Source of the DNA: Stegostoma tigrinum
Lineage: Eukaryota
DNA length: 64,000 nt
Reading direction: 5' to 3'
Assembly (NCBI RefSeq): GCF_030684315.1
Contig: NC_081365.1
Span: forward strand, 70,488,898-70,552,897
Numbering within the stretch: position 1 is the stretch's first letter; each line of letters begins with the position of its first letter. A program made the translations under genes and the position numbers. Positions 4,227 to 52,939 of the stretch are shown here, one piece after another. The notes under the pieces are model-generated. The model made no database searches. It had not been told where the DNA came from and worked only from the letters and a program-made list of their open reading frames with translations.

Positions 4227-4430
4227 TCGACAAAAAGAACCACGGATGCTGTAAACCTGAAGCAATAGCAAATAATTGCTGGAAAAGCTCAGCAGGTCCG
4301 TCTGTGGAGAGAAAGCAGAGTTAACGTTTCAGGTCCAGAACAGAGTGACTAGGCCTGACACATTAACCTGGCTTTCTCTGCACAGATGCTGCCATTCCTG
4401 CTGAGATTTTCCAGAAATTTCTCGTGTTTT
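4227..4430 (-). mobile_element. Fold-back PLE-derived mini element, family B
   Basis: ttgctggaaaagctcagcagg / cctgctgagattttccagaaa inverted arms; TSD ttttcatccaa at 4216-4226 and 4431-4441. Confidence 0.75.
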
Positions 4431-6591: not shown

Positions 6592-6975
6592 CCTGAGTAG
6601 ATTTGTAGCTTGGGTTGAGGACGTTATGGTTGGTTGGCTCGCAGACGTTTCATTACCCTGCTGGGTAACATCATCAGTGCAGCCTCCGACGGTACGCCAT
6701 TGTGTTTTCGCACCTGGTATTTAAACTCTGGGGTCCACTGCAATGGGTTACCTCATTTTCAGTCTTTTTTTTGCACTGGTGTATATATAGGGTCTAGTTC
6801 TAAGTGTTTATTGATGGCCTCCTTGGTGGAGAACCAGGCCTCTAGGAATTCCCATGCCAGTCCCAGGATCCTGACATTGTCCCAATCAAACTGGTGGTTC
6901 TTCTTGTCTGTGTGTGTGTGGAGACAAGGGAGTATTGGTCATGTCAGTAAATGAACGCCAACTAGCAACAAAAAA
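6592..6975 (-). mobile_element. Penelope-like element family D, 3' fragment (end of endonuclease region + terminal repeat)
   Basis: Minus-strand translation HDQYSLVSTHTDKKNHQFDWDNVRILG..EFLEAWFSTKEAINKHLELDPIY, typical of the Penelope/Poseidon ORF C-terminus; HHR downstream. Confidence 0.8.
6636..6684 (-). ncRNA. Minimal type-I hammerhead ribozyme (PLE family D)
   Basis: Minus strand: GGCTGCA-CTGATGA-T-GTTACCC-AGCA-GGGTAAT-GAAA-CGTC|TGCGAGCC. Intact core, 7-bp helix II, helix I GCA/TGC extendable; predicted cut between 6644 and 6643. Confidence 0.8.
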
Positions 6976-20097: not shown

Positions 20098-21375
20098 ATT
20101 CCATAATGCCACCATTGCAAATATTCTCTATAGCTCCATCCAATACACTAGCCCAAAACTCTATCTTTCTCTAGTTTCTCTCCCATCTTCCCTTCATCTC
20201 ATTGGAACATAAGGCCAGCAGCAAGCCATTCAGCCTTTAAAATCTGCCCTGCTATTCAATACTATCACAGCTGATCAAACACTTCAGTGGTTTTTACTGA
20301 CTGCAACTCCTTCAAACTCTGAGCTGATCTTAACCATGAGACCCACCTCCTGCTCCATTGACCGCATTCCAATCTGCTGACCGCACAGCTCCTCGTCCTG
20401 ATCCCTTTATCAGTCAATACTGTTAGCTCGAGGGGTTGCCTCTCTCTATAAAATCTGTCATCACTCCTCTCCTCAAAAAATATAACAGAGCTCAGCACGC
20501 TTACAAAACTACTGTCTCATCTTCAACATCTCCTAGCCATTTCAACAATAAATATTTCGTCAATAAATAAATCATTCTGCTATTACTCAGGTACCTACTC
20601 AATACCCAGCAAAAGATACCACAATGGTCAATCTTCTCCAGCGAGCGCACACTTTGGCAATACTGAAAGTAAGGATAGTTAAGTGAGTGACAATGATGCT
20701 GGACTAGGAACTTAACAACTGCCAATTTAACGCAGACAGAGGGGCAAATCTGGAAGCAGCTTTCTGTTCTTCAGTCATACCTTGGCCGAGTTCTACCTCA
20801 ACCCCATATCCTATCGCATATATTCTTACTCCGCACAAAACCATCCACCTCAGTTTTCCGCAAGTTAATCGGCTCAGCACATTTCTCAAAGAGAATTACA
20901 GATTTCCACACGTCTGACACTGAGCCTGAGGAGACATGAGGGACAGGTGACAAGAACCTGGGTCAAAGTCGTGGGATTTTTAGCAGCAGCTTAAGAGGAG
21001 GGCTGAGAGGGAGAGAGGACAGACTTAGGGAGGCAAATCAGGGAGCGGTGAAGGGGGTGGGTTAGTGAGAAAGTTTTAAAAAAAAAGAGGGGGGGAGAAA
21101 AAAACATCAAACACAGCCTAGAGGACAAGAAGATAACATCAATAATGGGAAGCTGTGACGATGGATTCAATCCTGAAACAACAGCCAACTTATGCAAATT
21201 ACATAGGCAGGACAAATGTGGCTTGGTAACATTTAGAGGATAGGGGGTGGTCAATACAGAGGCTACCATTTGATTCCAAATGGCCCTTTCCTGTCCACTG
21301 AGTAACAAGTGCAAGAGGGAGCCACCAACCTACAGACTCTCACTGCCTCCTCAAAGAGGTAGCTGCGATATACAA

Positions 21376-21522
21376 GATAATAAAATGTGAGGCTGGATGA
21401 ACACAGCAGGCCAAGCAGCATCTTTTGTGCTCCTGAGATGCTGCTTGGCCTGCTGTGTTCATCCAGCCTCACATTTTATTATCTTGGAATTCTCCAGCAT
21501 CTGCAGTTCCCATTATCTCTTA
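21376..21522 (+). mobile_element. Fold-back PLE mini element, family A, lacking the HHR core
   Basis: Near-perfect inverted arms; 16-bp TSD tagctgcgatatacaa at 21360-21375 and 21523-21538. Confidence 0.9.
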
Positions 21523-23688
21523 TAGCTGCGATATACAAAGCAAGTTTGTGAAACCCTGCACTGGCCACGTCATTGCCTCAGGGAGCTGCATCGGCCCCGT
21601 CTCGATTCGCTCTGGAGTTGCTTCATCCACATTCACCCTTCCCACTCTCCAACACAGTGTGTTTCTCAACCACTAGGACGTGCCCCACTGGTGCGGCACA
21701 AACACTGTCGAGGTGCAACACCAAGAGCTGACACGCTTGCCAATGGAATGCAATCACAGGCTTCTCACAATTCACTTCCTCACTACAATTCAGCAATACT
21801 ACTTAGTCTCAGCAGAAAGCACTGCAATTTTTACTGTCCCTGAAATTTCCAAGAATGTTCAACAATAAAATGCAGGTTAAAAAATAACGCACCTCAGAAA
21901 AAGTTGGGGCCTGGTTTTTGTCAATGTGGGATTTCAAGGTTGAGAGCCACTGCTGTAATAGAGCTCCAACACAGTGCAGCGATTCAACATTAAAATTAGA
22001 ATTCTGTGTATATGGATATTGCTCCAGGCAATACCAGTATAGCTGGCATTCCTTTACTCATGCTACACAACAATCACGTGTACAGACTTGAAGACGGCAT
22101 TACAATTGTTTTCAGCTGCAAAACTGCCAAATAGCTTTAAAAGTCCAGGCAACACATTCAGAAAAACACCTTCAAATGGTGGATCTTGACCAATTAGCTA
22201 TCTCTGCTTGTTGGTAAGATGGCTGCTGTTCGGGTCCTTTGTCCAATGATCAACAGATTATCATGCCCATGGGTAAGAACCCTGAAATACAACAGACACT
22301 TCGAATCTGTAATTCTAAAGGTTTTTCTTTTTTAAATTGCGGCTGTATATGTAAAATAAGTGGGTGTCTGGACACCCAAGGGATTTCCTAACTACAGATG
22401 CAAAGGGAACTTCAAGCAACAGCCAGCTAAAAAGAAAAGGGGGGTGGAGAAGGGAGGGATGGAGGGAGAGAGGGAGGGGGAGAGACACACAAGTCAAAAT
22501 GGACTGTGATCTCTCATGACTACAAAGATAATGAAGGGTTGATGACCTCTTGAGGTTTATGTTGCAAACATTTTTTTTGGTTTTTCCCTTTGTAGAATAC
22601 GCAAGAGCCAGAATTAAAATGCCAGCTTCAAGTCTACTGAGTATGCCAGTGAGACTGAGCATGTATACCAGTGGTTTAAGTTACCCATGTGTAGCAAAAA
22701 GAAAGGAATGCAAACTATGCTGGTATTGCCTTTGGTGATATCCAAAGAATGAGCACTGTTGTGCACTGTTGGAACGAGCCTGGATTCAAACATTAGGATG
22801 CTGGGATGGTCACGGTCAAAGAACTATCCACTAGTTACCCCAGTGTTGCAAGCAAAGAGACTCCCTCACTGACTGCAAGAAGTTACCCAGTTAGGTATCA
22901 CCTTGGATGCTGGAATTCAGGTACTGGGAAAAGGAAACAGAACCACAGAATTTCAAACAAGCTGAAAACTAAAAAAAACTCGAAATTGATTGCTGACCCA
23001 AGAGCAGCCCTACTGCTAAAGTCACAATGTTCAACCATCCACTCTGTAGACGTTTCACAAACTGACCTGCACAGTTTTCAATTTCTCTTCCATCTCTTTT
23101 TGGACTCACCTCTTAGCGTTGCTGGTTCTTCTTGTGTTCCTTAATTAATAAACTCGTACTTTGGGGACTCAAGGAAATCTGGTTAAATTTGCTCTGATTA
23201 TGTTTACCTGGGTCTCGCAGAAAAGTAAGGGACCAAAACAAGGGAAGGGATCTGTTTCTAAGCTAACATGTTGCAGTGAATGAAGTAGGGGAGTCACCCA
23301 TCTTGGGAGTTTAATGATTCAGTGTATCTCTCCGAGAACCGGGACAACGTGGGAAACCTGGCCAAGGGTCTGTGTGTAACAGCATTCCAGCAGAGACGCT
23401 GCCTGAATCCCATCATGGGTGCTGTGTCATCAATGCATTTTAGAAGTAACCCTGCACACATTATGTAATGCTGCACATAAATCTCTCGTTCAGATCCCAG
23501 GGAGAAATCTCATGCTTATATGGGTTTCAAGTAGGGAGACTTAAAGTACACTGGTTTCATGTTTCATTTCTGGGACTCTCACAGCTGCTGTTTCAAAATC
23601 CATGCACTAATTTTTGACTCATGGTCTAACCTCCAGACTCAGCTGTTCCAAAACTGCCAGTACCTTCCATCTTCCTTAAAGGACAAGG

Positions 23689-27160: not shown

Positions 27161-29203
27161 ACCTTGACTCCCTCCCTCACTGCCTAGTGATCACAGTGGC
27201 ATAAACAAGATGCACAGCAGTAACACACCAAGGTTCCTTCAAGAGGACCTTCCAAACCCATGGCCACTTCCACCTAGAAGGACAAGGGCAGCAGTTACAT
27301 GGGAACAGCACCACCTCAAAGCCACTCACCACCCTGACTTGGAAATAAATCACCGTTCCTTCACTGTTGTTGGGTCAAAATTCTCCAATTCCCTTCTTGG
27401 ACTCACCAAAACACGCAGTGGTTTCAGAAGGCAGCTCACCACTACCAGCACCTTCTCCACGGAATCAGCGATGGGCATTAAATGCTGTCTTGGCCGGGGG
27501 AACCCCACATCCCATGGGCAAGTCATTTTAGAAAAAGGCAAAACAAATCAGGGAGAAGGCCAGAATTAGAGCAATGTCGAGGCTGGACAGTGGCGCAAGA
27601 CAGGGAGGGGCAAAGCCATGATGGGACTTGAACAAAAGGGTGAAGAAGATGCCGGTGGATCAGAAGCCAATGTGGGTCAGTGAATGCAGAATGAACAGAA
27701 TTTGGTACGTGCTAAGATACCAGCAGAGTTTTGGAAGCATTTAAGGACAGTAGAAGCTGGATGATTCTACCTTTTGCTTTCAGTGTGTGCATTCCTTTGG
27801 GAATCCTAACACACAGCAGTTGCCCAACTGTTGCTGAAATCTATGGCAGGCCCAGTTTCCCTGAATGGATGTAAAGGGAGAGGACAAAGTGGACTACAAT
27901 AACATAAGCATCACACAGTCTGCCCATTGCTTATGACGGTTCAGAAGATACTCTTCACTCTTGGTCTCCGTTTACAAAACGTACTAGTTTTGGAGGAACT
28001 GAAAACCTCTTGTGTAATCCTGCCAGAATTCTAATACACTCTTAAATCAGCACAAGATCTAGTAGAAGCCACAGAAATCTGGAACTCTGACATTGGATAC
28101 TTGACTCAGGAACAAACATTGCTTGGAGCCTTATTTCATCATATATCATTCCTGTACTGAGCAACGCAGCACAGCTTGATATAAACCTTCTTGCTCAATG
28201 CTGTGGTTCCTTTAAACATCAGCCATTAATTGCAGAGTGATCAGCTTGTTCTTAAGTGAATTACTTCCACAAAGCAGTCAGCAAACCCAAGAGAACGGCA
28301 TGCATTTGAAATTTCTGCTTTCCATCCCTCAATGTCCCGCCCAGCTAATTTTATTCCTGCGGTTTGCTAATACTCTGGCTGAGATAATAATTCCCCAGCG
28401 GCAAGGCAGTACCAAACAAATACATTCTGAGCATAATTGGCTAGCAATTACTGCACAGCAGTTAGCACACAGCAATCTTTTGCTACTGTATCTTTCTACA
28501 ACCACAGCCTTCCCTAGTGCATGTGATGTTTGTAGGCAGGAAGCTGACGAATGAAAATTGCTACAGTTACTCTCATTGTAGCTTATCTGCTGTCTGACAG
28601 AGTTACGAATTCACCTGGAAGTTGCAGCAATTAAAGACTAATCTCCAGGACACTATGGCAAGCAATCAAGAGAAAATTACAGAGGTGTTAAAACAATAGT
28701 TTCAATAACATTATGCTTAAAAAAGGCATTTCAGCACTTTTAATTAATACCCAATGCATGAAAACATTGCTTGATTTGCAGTCACAAATCATTCACTAGT
28801 ATTACAGCGAGTCCCCACCTTCTCATTAGCTGTGGGAGGGAGGGTCATGTTAACAAACACCAATGGGAACAAAGTCAAAGAGAGTTGGCAAAAAGGATTT
28901 CGACAGGTTGGATGAGTGAGCGAACATTTGGCAGAATATAAAAAGTGGGCAATCTCATGAGGTCCACTTTGGCGGGGAGAACAGAAAAGCGGAATATTGA
29001 TTGGAGTGGGACTGCAAGACACTAGGATCTGGGTGTCCTTGTATACGTTGGTAGACAGACACAGCAAGTCATTGGGAAGGGAAATGCAACAACAACCTTT
29101 ATTGCAATGGGCATGGTGCATACAACTAGGGGAACCTTGCTGCAGCTTAGAAGTGTTGAGTAGTGTGTAGTTTTGGTCTTGTATTGGACATCATTCCCAG
29201 AAG

Positions 29204-29395
29204 AACAAAAACAAATTTGCTTGAAAAGCTCAGCAGGCCTGGCAGCATCTGTGGAGGAGAAAGCAGAGTTAACATTTTGGGTCCGGTGACCCTTCCTCTG
29301 CTTTCTCCTCCACAGATGCTGCCAGACTTGCTGAGCTTTTCAAGCAACTTTTATTTTGTTCCTGGTTTACAGCATCCACAGTTCTTTCGGTTTTT
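29204..29395 (+). mobile_element. Fold-back PLE mini element, family B
   Basis: Inverted arms around 29295; TSD atcattcccagaag / atcattcctagaag at 29190-29203 and 29396-29409. Confidence 0.88.
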
Positions 29396-31957: not shown

Positions 31958-32095
31958 GCAGGAGGACAGAGAACACAGTGTGGGGCTGGAAGAACACAGC
32001 AGGCCACGCAGCATCAGAGGGGCAGGAGGAGGACAGACAACGCAGTGTGGTGCTAGAGGAACACAGCAGGCCACGCAGCATCAGAGGGGCAGGAG
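31958..32095 (-). repeat. Tandem duplication (~70 bp x2) of a PLE family A arm fragment
   Basis: gaacacagcaggccacgcagcatcagaggggcaggag occurs twice in direct orientation. Confidence 0.8.
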
Positions 32096-45630: not shown

Positions 45631-45699
45631 TAATCTCAGTGTATTTCAGTCAGAGTTGTATTATATTCTCTGGTCTACTTGCCTAAAGCACTATAATAT

Positions 45700-45925
45700 G
45701 GAACAAAAACAGAAATTGCTGGAAAAGCTCAGCAAGTCTGGCAGCGTCTATGTGGGAAAAATCAGAGTTAACGTTTTGGGTCCGGTGACCCTTCCTTAGA
45801 ACATTTGACGAAGCGTTAACTCTGACTTTTTTTCTTCACAGATGCTGCCAGATGCGCTGAGCTTTTCCAGCAACTTCTGTTTTTCTTTCTGATTTACAGC
45901 ATCCACAGTTCTTTTGTTTTTTATT
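45700..45925 (+). mobile_element. Fold-back PLE mini element, family B
   Basis: Inverted arms; decayed antisense HHR at 45767-45802; short TSD-like cactata on both sides. Confidence 0.82.
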
Positions 45926-47136: not shown

Positions 47137-48189
47137 TCCTGGGTTGAAGCAGGGGGAGGGGGGGGGGGCTGGAGAAACCACACAGGTATCCTCTCACACA
47201 AAGAGCAAACATTCGAGGGCTGGCAAATGGAACATTTGAGTCACAATTCACACACTGGCTGCCAGCTCCCGGGAGACTTTCATGCTGCTAACAAGGTTTT
47301 GTTGAACAAGCCGCATTCCTCAAACAGCGGGGAAACCTCCTCAAATCCCACCGCCTCCAATCGCCCAACACCCACCCAGCCCCCGCCCCTTACAAACTCC
47401 ATCCTTGAAAAGAATCAAACATTCCCGCACTACTTCAGCTGCTGCAGCTTCTCATGAGCAAACAACAGAAAAAGGCCCAGCGTACAACAGCCTGGAGCTG
47501 TTACTCCGTTAACAGAGCTTGGAGCCCACAGGGCTGAATTTATTTTTATTTCACCAATAAAAATTCCTTTGCTGCTGATTCTGAGCTGCTTACCCAACTC
47601 GACACAGGGACTGAGGCAGTTCAAATTTAGCAGGCATCACAAGCAACACGGAGATAATCGCGAGGTGGTAAACGTTCCCAGTCGATCGTTTTGAAACACT
47701 AAGGGCAACTATGCCCCAGGGAAAATCTGAGCATTCAGTGTGAAGGCAGATCAGCCTCTCAATAAAGAGCATTGAAATTCCGATGCCATTGGGAAACTCT
47801 CTGGATGGTTTAATATTCCCCTATAAGACCAGACACACAACATATCCCAAAACCACAACACTCCTTTCTGCACAGCAGAATCACACTGGAATTATTGTTC
47901 AACAAACCTCACCGAATTAATATTTATCTCTCTCAAGACGTTCAGTAAATGAGGAGTATCAATAAATAAATCATGATAGGAGACAACATAAACTGGCAAA
48001 AGTTCTAGCTTTTGTGCTCCTGAGATGCTGCTTGGCCTTGCTGTGTTCATCCAGCCTCACATTTTATTATCTTGGATTCTCCAGCGTCTGCAGTTCCCAT
48101 TATCTCTGATACAATTTTAACCTCACTGCGAAACCTCTTCCAGGGATGCCTAACCTGAAGAAGTTACCCTCCTCCCTCCAGAAACTAGA

Positions 48190-49030
48190 ATACATCTCCT
48201 CCCACCCACACTCCCGCAAAAATTCCAACCCCTATTCCCAATCCTCCGCCGCATCTGCTCCCACAATGAGGCATTCCACTCCCGCACATCCCAGATGTCC
48301 AAGTTCTTCAAGGACCGCAACATTCCCCCCACAGTGGTCGAGAACGCCCTTGACCGCTTCACCCGCATTTCCCGCAACACATCCCTCACACACCGCCCCC
48401 GCCACAACCGCCCAAAGAGGATCCCCCTCATTCTCACACACCACCCAACCAACCTCCAGATACAACGCATCATCCTCCGACACTTCCGCCATCTACAATC
48501 CGACCCCACCACCCAAGTCATTTTTCCAACCCCACCCTTGTCTGCTTTCCGGAGAGACCACTCTCTCCGTGACTCCCTTGCTCGCTCCACACTGCTCTCC
48601 AACCCCACCACACCCAGCACCTTCCCCTGCAACCGCAGGAAGTGCTACACTTGCCCCCACACCTCCTCCCTCACCCCCATCCCAGGCCCGAAGATGACTT
48701 TCCATATTAAGCAGAGGTTCACCTGCACATCTGCCAATGTGGTATACTATATCCATTGTACCCGGTGTGGCTTCCTCTACATTGGGGAAACCAAGCGGAA
48801 GCTTGGGGACCGCTTTGCAGAACACCTCCGCTCGGTTCGCAACAAACAACTGCACCTCCCAGTCGCGAACATTTCCACTCCCCCTCCCATTCTTTAGATG
48901 ACACGTCCATCATGGGCCTCCTGCAGTGCCACAATGATGCCACCCGAAGGTTGCAGGAACAGCAACTCATATTTCGTTTGGGAACCCTGTAGCCCAATGG
49001 TATCAACGTAGACTTCACCAGCTTCAAAAT
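48190..49030 (+). pseudogene. PLE ORF remnant: RT C-terminal/thumb region, Cys-rich linker and GIY-YIG endonuclease
   Basis: CNRRKCYTC...FTCTSANVVYYIHCTRCGFLYIGETKRKLGDRFAEHLRSV; frameshift near 48870, then HFHSPSHS..RRLQEQQLIFRLGTL*PNGINVDF with an in-frame stop. Confidence 0.88.
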
Positions 49031-49350
49031 CTCCCCTTCCCCCACCGCATCCCAAAACCAGCCCAGTTCGTCCCCTCCCCCCACTGCATCTCACAACCAG
49101 CCCAGCTTGTCTCTGCCTCCCTAACCTGTTCTTCCTCTCACCCATCCCTTCCTCCCACCCCAAGCCGCACCTCCATGTCCCACCTACTAACCTCATCCCG
49201 CCTCCTTGACCTGTCTGTCTTCCCTGGACTGACCTATCCCCTCCCTACCTCCCCACCTATACTCTCCTCTACACCTATCTTCTTTTCTCTCCATCTTCGG
49301 TCCCCCTCCCCTTCTCTCCCTTTTTATTCCAGAACTCTCACCCCATCCCC

Positions 49351-49385
49351 CTCTCTGATGAAGGGTCTAGGCTGAAAACGTCAGC
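49351..49385 (+). ncRNA. Minimal hammerhead ribozyme (family A, helix II mutated)
   Basis: ctct-ctgatga-agggtctaggct-gaaaacgtc|agc. Confidence 0.55.
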
Positions 49386-50767
49386 TTTTGTGCTTCTGAG
49401 ATGCTGCTTGGCCTGCTGTGTTCATCCAGCTCCACATTTTATTATCAAAGTACTGGAAAGAATTGGTTTCAGCATGCATTGCCCAATTTGGCTGGACCAC
49501 ATCAAGATACATAGAACATAGACCAGTACAGCACAGTGCGGGCCCTTCAGCCCAGGATGTTGTACCGAAATTTTACGCTAAACCTAAGATCTATCTAACC
49601 TCCACTGCTATCTTATACTAGCATCCACATGCCTATCTAACTGCTGCTTAAATTCCCCTATTGAGGCTGACACCACTACCCTCTCTGGCAATGCATTCCA
49701 CACCCCGACCACTCTCTGAGTAAAGAACCTACCTCTGACGTCTCCCCTATATCTATCTTTACTCACTTTAAAACTATGCCCCCTCGTAATAGCTACCTCC
49801 ACCCCAGGAAAAAGTCTCCACTCTATCTATTCCTCTGATCATTTTGTACACCTCTATCAAGTCACCTCTCTTCCTTCGTCGTTCTAAAGAGAAAAGCCCT
49901 ATATCCCTCAACTTTTCCTCGTAAGACCTTCCCTCCATTCCAGGCAACATCCTGGTATATCTCCTCTGCACCTTTTCCAGTGCTTCCACATCTTTCCTGT
50001 AATGAGGCGACCAGAACTGGACACAATACTCCAGATGTGGCCAACCCAGGGTTTTGTATAGCTGGAGCATAACTTCATGGCTCTTGAACTCAATCCCTCT
50101 ATTAATGAAAGCTAACACACCATATGCCTTCTTAACAACTCCACCTACCTGGGTGGCAGCTTTCAGGGAACTGTGGACATGAACCCCGAGATCCCGCTGC
50201 TCCTCCATACCACCAAAGGATCTTTCCATTAACCCTGTATTCTGCTTTCAAGTTTGTCCTTCCAAAATGAATCACCTGACACTTTTCAGGGTTAAACTCC
50301 ATCTGCCACTTCTCAGCCCAGCTCTGCATCCTATCAATGTCCCTTTGTAACCTAGAACAGCCCTCTCAACTGTCCACAACACGACCCACCTTTGTATCGT
50401 CCGCGAACTTGCTAATCCACCCTTTCACTCCTACATCCAAATCATTTACAAAAATGACAAATAGAAGAGGACCTAGAACAGATCCTTGTGGTACACCACA
50501 TGTAACTGAGCACCACGTTGAATATTTTCCATCTACTACCACCCTTTATCTTCTAAGGGTCAGCCAATTCTGAATCCAATCTGCTACATTTCCTCCTATC
50601 CCATGCCTCCTTACCTTCTGCATGAGCCTACCATGGGAAACCTAATCAAACACCTTACTTAAATAGTATCAGAGATAATGGGAACTGCAGATGCTGGAGA
50701 ATTCCAAGATAATAAAATGTGAGGCTGGATGAACACAGCAGGCCAAGCAGCATCTCAGGAGCACAAA

Positions 50768-50803
50768 AGCTGACGTTTCGGGCCTAGACCCTTCATCAGA
50801 GAG
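50768..50803 (-). ncRNA. Minimal type-I hammerhead ribozyme (family A), opposite-strand copy
   Basis: Exact reverse complement of 50805-50840. Confidence 0.72.
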
Positions 50804-50804
50804 G

Positions 50805-50840
50805 CTCTCTGATGAAGGGTCTAGGCCCGAAACGTCAGCT
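50805..50840 (+). ncRNA. Minimal type-I hammerhead ribozyme (family A)
   Basis: ctct-CTGATGA-A-GGGTCTAGGCCC-GAAA-CGTC|AGCT; predicted cut after 50836. Confidence 0.72.
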
Positions 50841-52939
50841 TTTGTGCTCCTGAGATGCTGCTTGGCCTGCTGTGTTCATCCAGCCTCACATTTTATTACC
50901 TTACTTAAATACACATATACCACATCCACCGCTTTACCTTCATTCACGTGTTTGGTCATCTCTTCAAAGAATTCAAGAAAGGTTTGTGAGCCATGATCTA
51001 CCCCTCACAAATCCATGCTGACTATCACGAAGCAAGCAGTGCCTTTCCAAGTGATCATTATTCATATCTCTCAGGGCCCTTTCCAAGAATTTGTCCACCA
51101 CTGGCATAAGGCTAACTGGCCTGTAATTTCCGGGGTTTTCCCTATTTCCTTCTTTGAACAAGGGAATGACGTTTGCCTCTCTCCAATCTTCCAGCACCAT
51201 ACTCGTGGACAGTGAAGACAAAAAGATCGTTGCCAAAGGCCCTGTGATCTCTTCCCTCATTTCCTATAGAATCCTTGGATAAATCCCATCAGGACCAGGG
51301 CACTTACTTTTCTTCAACTTCTGCAAAATTCCTAGCACATCTTCCTTACTAACATCCACCTCCTCTAGTCTACGACCCTGTTTCACACTGTCTTCCTCTA
51401 CAACTAGATCCTTCTCAGTTGTGAATACCAAAGAAAAGTGTTCATTAAGGGCCTCTCCTATCTCTTTAGGCACTGTGCACAAATTCCCTTTACAATCCTT
51501 GATCGGCCCTACCCTTTCTCTGGTCATTCTCTTATTCCTCGTGTACGTGTAAAAAGGATCAAAGAAAACTCCAAGGCTATCCGAGGTTTCTCATGTCCCC
51601 TTATAGCTCTCTTAAGCCCTTTCTTCAGCTCCTTCCTGGATAACTTGTATCCCTCTCGAGCCTTTTCCATTCCTTGTTTCCCACACCTTATATAGCCTTC
51701 CTTCTTCAACCTAACCAGTGGTTTAACCTCTCGAGGACCAAGGCTCCCTCACTCGACCGCATCTTCCCTGCCTGCTAGGGTCAAACATATCGAGCACATG
51801 TGGTATGCATTCCTTAAACAATCTCCACATTTCAATAGTGTTCTTCCCTGACATCATCTGTTCCCTTTTTATGTTATCCAGTTCTTACCTAACAGAATTA
51901 TAATTACCCTTCCCTCAATTATAAACCCTACCCTGCTGTATGTACCTATCCTTTTCCATGACTATTGTAAAAGTAACAGTTATGATCGCTACCACTGAAA
52001 TGCTCTCCTACCAACAGGTCTGACACTTGGCTCGGTTCATTGCCAAGCACCAAATCCAAAGTGGCCTCTCTCGTGTTGGTCTATCTACATACTGTCAGGA
52101 ATTCTTCCTGAATGCACTGGAAAAAATCCACTCCATCTTAACAATTACAACTAAAATGTTTCCAATCAATATTTGGAAAGTTGACGTCACCCATGACCAC
52201 AACCCTGTGACTTCTGCACCTTTCCAGTATCTGCCTCCCAATCCGCTCCTCCAATTCTCTGCAACTATTAGGGGGTCTGTAAAAAACCCGCAACAAAGTG
52301 ACTGCTCCTTGTTCCTGACGTCAACCCAAACTGAATCTGTAGACATGTCATTCTCGAGCTACCTTTCAGTAGCTGCTATAAATAGCCCTGATTAGCAATG
52401 CCACTCCCCCACCTCTTTTTCCATGCTCCCCATTTCTTTTAAAGCATCTAAATCCCGGAACTTCCACAACCATTCCACTCCCGGAGTTGCCCAAGTTTCT
52501 GTAAAGGCCACAACATCGTAGTTCCAAGTACCCACCCATAAGTTCGTCCATATTTCGGTTACTTCAAGCATTGAAGTATCTGCAACTCAAACCATCTTTG
52601 CGTCCAACTCAACTGCTTTCCTTCGATAAAAGTGTATCTAGTTAATCTGGAGCCCCCAGTTTCCTTTCTTCATTACCGCTCACCTCGTCCAACCACTCTC
52701 CCTCACTCCCTCCATTCCCACCCCGAACAAAGTGATCACAGAATTCTTTCTCCCTGATCTTGAGAGGGGTGTTCAGCTTCGTCTGTCACATCCCATTCTT
52801 TTCCCTTGGTCTATTCAGCCAAAACTATTTCCTACTGTCTTTATCTTGTCTTTGCATCTGCTTCTGGTTTCTCGCCTATCTTGTTCAATTCATGCCTTGC
52901 CTGATCTAAGTTTTCCCTTTGAGATGAACCTGGGATTAT

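Follow-up and report, generated by a model that had tools for sequence, protein, structure and literature searches.

The window analysed here, a stretch of 64,000 nucleotides from Stegostoma tigrinum, contains a decayed LINE on the minus strand at about 49608–51748 (outer limits approximate), with a CR1/L2-like ORF2 disrupted by many frame breaks. Fragments of its reverse transcriptase match RVT_1 with E values of 2.5e-4 and 7e-4, both below the curated cut-off; its motifs suggest a CR1. The LINE is interrupted by an insert of 232 bp (50666–50897), on either side of which the same 14 letters, ACCTTACTTAAATA, are found at 50652–50665 and 50898–50911. When the insert is removed, the site aligns gap-free to 14 paralogous LINE copies (from 34 BLAST hits to the flanks). 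Because these copies cross the site with the target present once, the 14-bp repeat is a true target-site duplication (TSD). An earlier note on this DNA had described the insert, its exact TSD and a 44-nt tail, and all of these coordinates hold.

The insert consists of two inverted arms, perfect over 94 bp (50710–50803 and 50805–50898) and centred on G50804, together with a tail (50666–50709) which is present on one side only. The arms are perfect, as the earlier note had claimed, but its account of them requires correction. The 94th base of the right arm doubles as the opening base of the right TSD, so that 93 arm bases belong to the insert proper. The single central nucleotide, moreover, may be counted as templated position -5 of the left arm. 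If the C3 residue of the hammerhead core described below is numbered +1, the tail corresponds to about +91 to +133 of the parent element on the minus strand, the tail-bearing pseudo-LTR (pLTR) arm (50710–50804, minus strand) to -5 to +90, and the tail-less inverted pLTR arm (50805–50898, plus strand) to -4 to +90.

Arm and tail together match the 3′-terminal 138 nt of a Neptune-type Penelope element of 3,528 bp in the same genome, which encodes a reverse transcriptase and a GIY-YIG nuclease; the Penelope origin proposed in the earlier note is thereby confirmed. The tail is templated: in tandem copies its sequence runs on into the beginning of the ORF, and 1,568 exact tail-to-ORF junctions were found. 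The stub itself carries no ORF. A frameshifted tandem parent copy, L046, to which the tail-bearing arm is 99% identical, contains PADKG, YIDD and GIY-YIG motifs and a C-X4-C-X2-C linker. Its Pfam matches lie below the cut-off (GIY-YIG, E 7.5e-4; RVT_1, E 0.026), and its Atlas neighbours, at 0.95–0.96, include GIY-YIG/RVT_1 members. For three of the first four ORF pieces, Pfam found no match. The features of endonuclease-bearing (EN+) Penelope-like elements (PLEs) are all present: a reverse transcriptase with a C-terminal GIY-YIG domain in L046, a 3,528-bp unit lying between two pLTRs formed by partial tandem arrangement, and an inverted 5′-truncated copy with a one-sided tail and a TSD. The defining features of the Neptune clade, taken from Craig 2021 (PMC8557442), are a CX2-5CxxC linker and a CCHH motif; here the C-X4-C-X2-C linker lies upstream of the nuclease, two cysteines lie between GIY and YIG in the C-terminal nuclease, and a DKG motif is also shared. 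By these features the element is, as judged from its sequence, Neptune-type, with Nematis as a possible placement. The insert is almost certainly a PLE stub, extremely truncated at its 5′ end. The high copy number suggested earlier is borne out: in the 3.2-Gb genome, a 57-mer taken from the arm occurs without mismatch 58,172 times.

Each arm carries the motif CTGATGA-A-stem-GAAA-CGTC, at 50809–50836 on the plus strand and 50799–50772 on the minus strand, so that a hammerhead core is indeed present on both strands. Both were located by a motif scan, and cleavage is predicted after 50836 for the former and after 50772 for the latter (by standard hammerhead numbering). The motif has the conserved core, the extra base before helix II, the G10.1–C11.1 pair and the palindromic 15.2–16.2 pair of minimal hammerheads. 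In these respects it resembles the minimal hammerheads of metazoan PLEs set out in PMC4209133: type I cores with an extra base before helix II, a G–C first pair, and a palindromic ACGU replacing helix III. Helix I, however, is only 2 bp in its natural context rather than the typical 4–5 bp, and helix II is 4 bp; the same source gives 4–5 and 7–8 bp for Schistosoma, and describes a 2-bp helix I variant in D. virilis. In the predicted monomer fold the core is paired away (-11.4 versus -0.7 kcal/mol). Rfam covariance models of the hammerhead families gave no match at E ≤ 1 in the window, where the only Rfam matches were chance ones to miRNA and SRP models, driven by hairpins.

RNA of the full palindrome is predicted to form a single long hairpin of -199 kcal/mol in which both cores are buried, in keeping with the earlier proposal that a read-through hairpin would hide the ribozyme. 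The accompanying claim of a very recent insertion goes too far. The absence of differences over 93 bp still allows about 3% divergence between the arms at 95%, and identical arms were also found in 7 of 33 sampled palindromes. From its sequence, including the 99% identity to L046, the insert can be placed in the youngest tier and no more precisely than that.

The window contains 10 fold-backs from two or more families, and TSDs of 10–16 bp were found for seven of them. The earlier count of at least nine similar, TSD-flanked fold-backs is therefore nearly right; most of the fold-backs do not have the core on each of their arms. An older, core-centred palindrome of a sister subfamily lies at 2755–2986 (15-bp TSD, one mismatch), and a shorter palindrome of the same family as the insert, without a core, at 21373–21524 (16-bp TSD). 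A partial tandem of the insert's parent PLE, with an internal deletion and with the GIY-YIG region present, occupies 48007–49446 on the plus strand; it jumps from the ORF start to -1205 and its 5′ end lies exactly at +29. Fold-backs of a second, older PLE-like family, likewise with a one-sided tail, are located at 4274–4419, 29203–29361 and 45695–45894. A second kind of minimal hammerhead, whose helix II is long and which probably belongs to another PLE family, is found on the minus strand at 6630–6690, and two partial arm copies at 31968–32091 are direct rather than inverted.

Palindromes of this kind are abundant. Pattern searches of the genome identified at least 5,841 whose arms meet no more than 30 nt upstream of the two cores, while a reversed control pattern gave no matches, which shows that they have not arisen by chance. 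The explanation we consider probable for the insert is that it is a PLE stub formed at this site by two separately primed cDNAs, both of which would have been extended to the 5′ end of a single RNA before being linked head to head. The transcript would start 1–6 nt before the hammerhead core and would probably be capped. The endonuclease would nick both strands of the target about 14 nt apart, giving rise to the TSD, and each nick would prime reverse transcription inside the RNA, one at about +93 and the other at about +130. It is this difference in priming site that would leave a tail on one side only. Both cDNAs would run off the RNA start because even the tail site is only about 135 nt from the 5′ end of the RNA, and their 3′ ends would then be joined via 0–4 nt of microhomology. 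The resulting stub is a likely dead end, and both of its cores are predicted to lie hidden in the hairpin. The earlier note was right to call the insert RT-generated.

The proposed RNA start derives from the distribution of arm ends, tabulated for arms at least 90% identical and reaching +70 or +76. Among 128 unselected arms, 19 end at -6 to -1, none at -54 to -7, and 41 run beyond -60; the number of ends falls off over some 15 nt downstream of the hotspot edge. A control window of the same size farther upstream holds 23 palindromes, though 22,069 tail arms pass -32. Centring of palindromes mainly on the cleavage site was also considered and was rejected, the main peak lying about 30 nt upstream. 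Taken together, these positions tip the balance towards the -6 to -1 hotspot being an RNA start, as the cause of the pile-up of ends.

An alternative, which we regard as unlikely, retains the PLE stubs but attributes the hotspot to a roadblock to reverse transcription, formed by the C-rich tract, or a protein bound to it, and by the hammerhead hairpin. In an older subfamily, whose upstream sequence differs, the arms likewise join at the first C of a C-run, so that two subfamilies stop at equivalent positions; this fits a sequence-linked roadblock as well as it fits a start site. The foot of the predicted hairpin at +30 is also in keeping with a roadblock, as is the rarity with which inner pLTRs start at the hotspot: few full-length copies begin there, and no inner pLTR starting at -6 to +1 was seen among 30 tail-to-ORF loci. 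A roadblock accounts less readily for the one-sided edge, with no ends over 48 nt upstream and a decay downstream. Nor does it explain why inner pLTRs of identical sequence should form the hotspot palindrome in a six-fold lower share (36 of 999, a count inflated by tandem arrays, versus 6,403 of 28,472 for all tail arms), or why pairs with one arm ending at the core and the other long are absent from 30 unselected pairs. Finally, reverse transcription of a cap can add an extra G. A G precedes the 5′ end in 6 of 10 lone copies ending at the hotspot versus 2 of 14 others, an excess which also speaks against a roadblock, although it is small and borderline (p=0.03; the set comprised 29 lone copies from 160 arms, with at least 92% identity and ambiguous ends dropped).

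That the palindromes arise from two separately primed cDNAs is considered highly probable. Exactly one tail is present in 88 of 93 head-to-head pairs, whose arms were chosen with the same limits on identity and reach as above, and the 3′ ends of the arms cluster at +92 to +95 and at +127 to +133, in agreement with the two RT start sites observed in vitro for an anole PLE. A stretch of unselected DNA totalling 1.264 Mb yielded 30 one-tail pairs: in 19 the tail arm falls short of the other by more than 5 nt, in six it is the longer and in five the two are equal (p=0.015); when selected loci are added it is shorter in 28 and longer in 17, which is not significant (p=0.14). Extreme asymmetric pairs reach +74/-762 and +87/-62. 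Where the tail arm is the shorter and each arm has sequence absent from the other, neither can have been copied from the other, and the 19 such pairs among the 30 thus favour two separately primed cDNAs over a fold-back of one. Self-priming of a single cDNA, proposed for such junctions in Arkhipova 2013 (PMC3846280), would account for arms that are near-identical, share variants and are correlated in their reach (rho 0.62), and single symmetric copies, this insert included, could have arisen in that way. Those 19 pairs nevertheless contradict it for the majority of asymmetric pairs, and as a general explanation it is improbable. Subfamily variants are mostly common to both arms, being discordant in 5 of 89, 7 of 85 and 10 of 83 where 33–39 (39 for the first) would be expected; this fits copying from one RNA, but subfamily bursts or arm conversion could also explain it. 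At some palindrome centres, brief stretches of the core (TGATG, CATC) have been inserted, which suggests that priming was attempted more than once at the joint.

Two priming events at a pair of nicks have a parallel in L1 twin priming, whereby a second nick primes a second cDNA and the two are joined at a microhomology. L1 twin priming inverts an upstream segment, whereas in the present case a single 3′ segment would be copied from either primer, which gives a palindrome.

It is very improbable that the palindromes instead constitute a non-autonomous family, of MITE-like or retrozyme-like type, that propagates itself by the copying of master palindromes. Thousands of units are of nearly equal size, some centres recur (the exact centre of this insert is found in 319 of the 5,841), 36 palindromes extend into the ORF start and could serve as masters, and non-autonomous tandem derivatives do exist. 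Against this, 32 different centres were counted by eye among the 50 matches listed. Of 20 loci sharing one centre, 10 have the tail on one arm, eight on the other and one on both, with one unclear, and palindrome sizes form a continuous series from about 120 bp to more than 2 kb. The earlier note had proposed a MITE-like class, and also a tabulation of TSDs across copies. An exact TSD of at least 11 bp is present in 30 of 41 loci, in 24 of them of 13–15 bp, and these TSDs vary in sequence. The MITE-like class is not supported: centres, tail side and arm ends vary from copy to copy, where a MITE would keep one constant structure through copying, and the arms derive from the 3′ ends of a retroelement, not from transposase-type TIRs. 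Non-LTR retrozymes consist of head-to-tail hammerhead units, whereas the insert is inverted, such arrays occurring elsewhere in the family. The stubs are likely to be made afresh at every landing site. An assembly artefact, of which perfect palindromes are a known type, is practically negligible given the exact TSD with a reconstructable empty site, the asymmetric tail, the existence of diverged sister palindromes and, at the family level, joints crossing the centre in contigs of other runs.

A smaller class of ends may derive from RNA cut by the ribozyme. Ends fall exactly at +29 in 5 of the 128 unselected arms, two of which are lone copies. AGCT lies at the predicted cut in 15 of the 50 junctions listed of 2,929, while ACGT and CTAG centres each occur in 2 of 50 among the matches listed of 1,697. 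A stall of reverse transcriptase at the foot of the predicted inactive hairpin, which spans +1 to +30, and AGCT microhomology would also produce ends near +29, and the peak is therefore a lead only. That it is a footprint of ribozyme cleavage is conceivable from these sequences, though the odds are somewhat against it. Frangieh 2024 (PMC11167929) found that none of the reads had their ends at the cut site of the anole element. At G000:C1:4,383,730–4,384,080, a palindrome joined +29/+29 precedes a pair of tandem units, each of which begins again at +28/+29. This array was not counted as proof of cleavage, as it restarts at +28, or at +29 plus one base. Elsewhere on G000:C1 (L106–L108, L115–L116 and others), short head-to-tail arrays of up to seven units, with periods of 166–362 bp, combine the pLTR with the ORF start; they are non-autonomous, resemble retrozymes and derive from the same element, and the deletion junction differs from one to the next. 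Junctions from ORF start to pLTR in L012, L040 and L100, some at short pyrimidine microhomologies, suggest template jumps by reverse transcriptase.

The inverted pLTR with a one-sided tail and a TSD has been described for PLEs (PMC3846280, PMC8557442, PMC8969392). Pen2a_Av of Adineta, as portrayed in PMC3846280 and in the overview PMC8557442, likewise has a head-to-head inverted 5′-truncated copy, a TSD round the unit and partial tandems. Its tail, likewise at one end, is of 30–40 bp, against 38–44 nt here, and its TSDs are of 8–10 bp (PMC3846280) rather than 13–15 bp. The family described here differs from it in being cut down to the last ~135 nt, in its thousands of copies and in its sharp junction hotspot. 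Double-nick priming has been demonstrated in vitro with Poseidon, a PLE of Anolis carolinensis (PMC11167929): two RT start sites bracket the tail and both strands are cut and extended, and the element has a hammerhead in its pLTR. Poseidon belongs to another clade, and in the present element the long frame has its first ATG ~35 nt beyond the tail rather than within the hammerhead. Non-LTR retrozymes (bioRxiv 10.64898/2026.07.22.740005) are PLE-derived, hammerhead-bearing and non-coding. The tandem arrays of this family fit that description; the insert, inverted and single, does not form a head-to-tail array. Neither a hotspot before the hammerhead nor double priming as a cause was found in full-text searches of a collection that includes few subscription papers.

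The insert is best seen as an ordinary stub among thousands, in which the clusters of ends likely record the RNA start and possibly the ribozyme cut. The inverted pLTR architecture is already known; what is added here is a further family, with exact positions that bear on mechanism. How the inverted repeat and tail of PLEs form, and what the hammerhead does, are posed as questions in PMC11167929, PMC3846280 and PMC8557442, and to these can be offered, as testable positions, a putative RNA start of -4, priming sites near +93 and +130, a nick stagger of about 14 nt and a predicted cut at +28/+29. More tentatively still, the stubs, tens of thousands in number, may constitute a base-resolution record of the PLE cycle, comprising a capped RNA that begins before the hammerhead, a tail-side cDNA that trails the other, and a second class of template cut by the ribozyme. 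If this were true, it would provide genomic evidence that a minimal hammerhead with a 2-bp helix I cleaves in vivo, in the germ line of a vertebrate.
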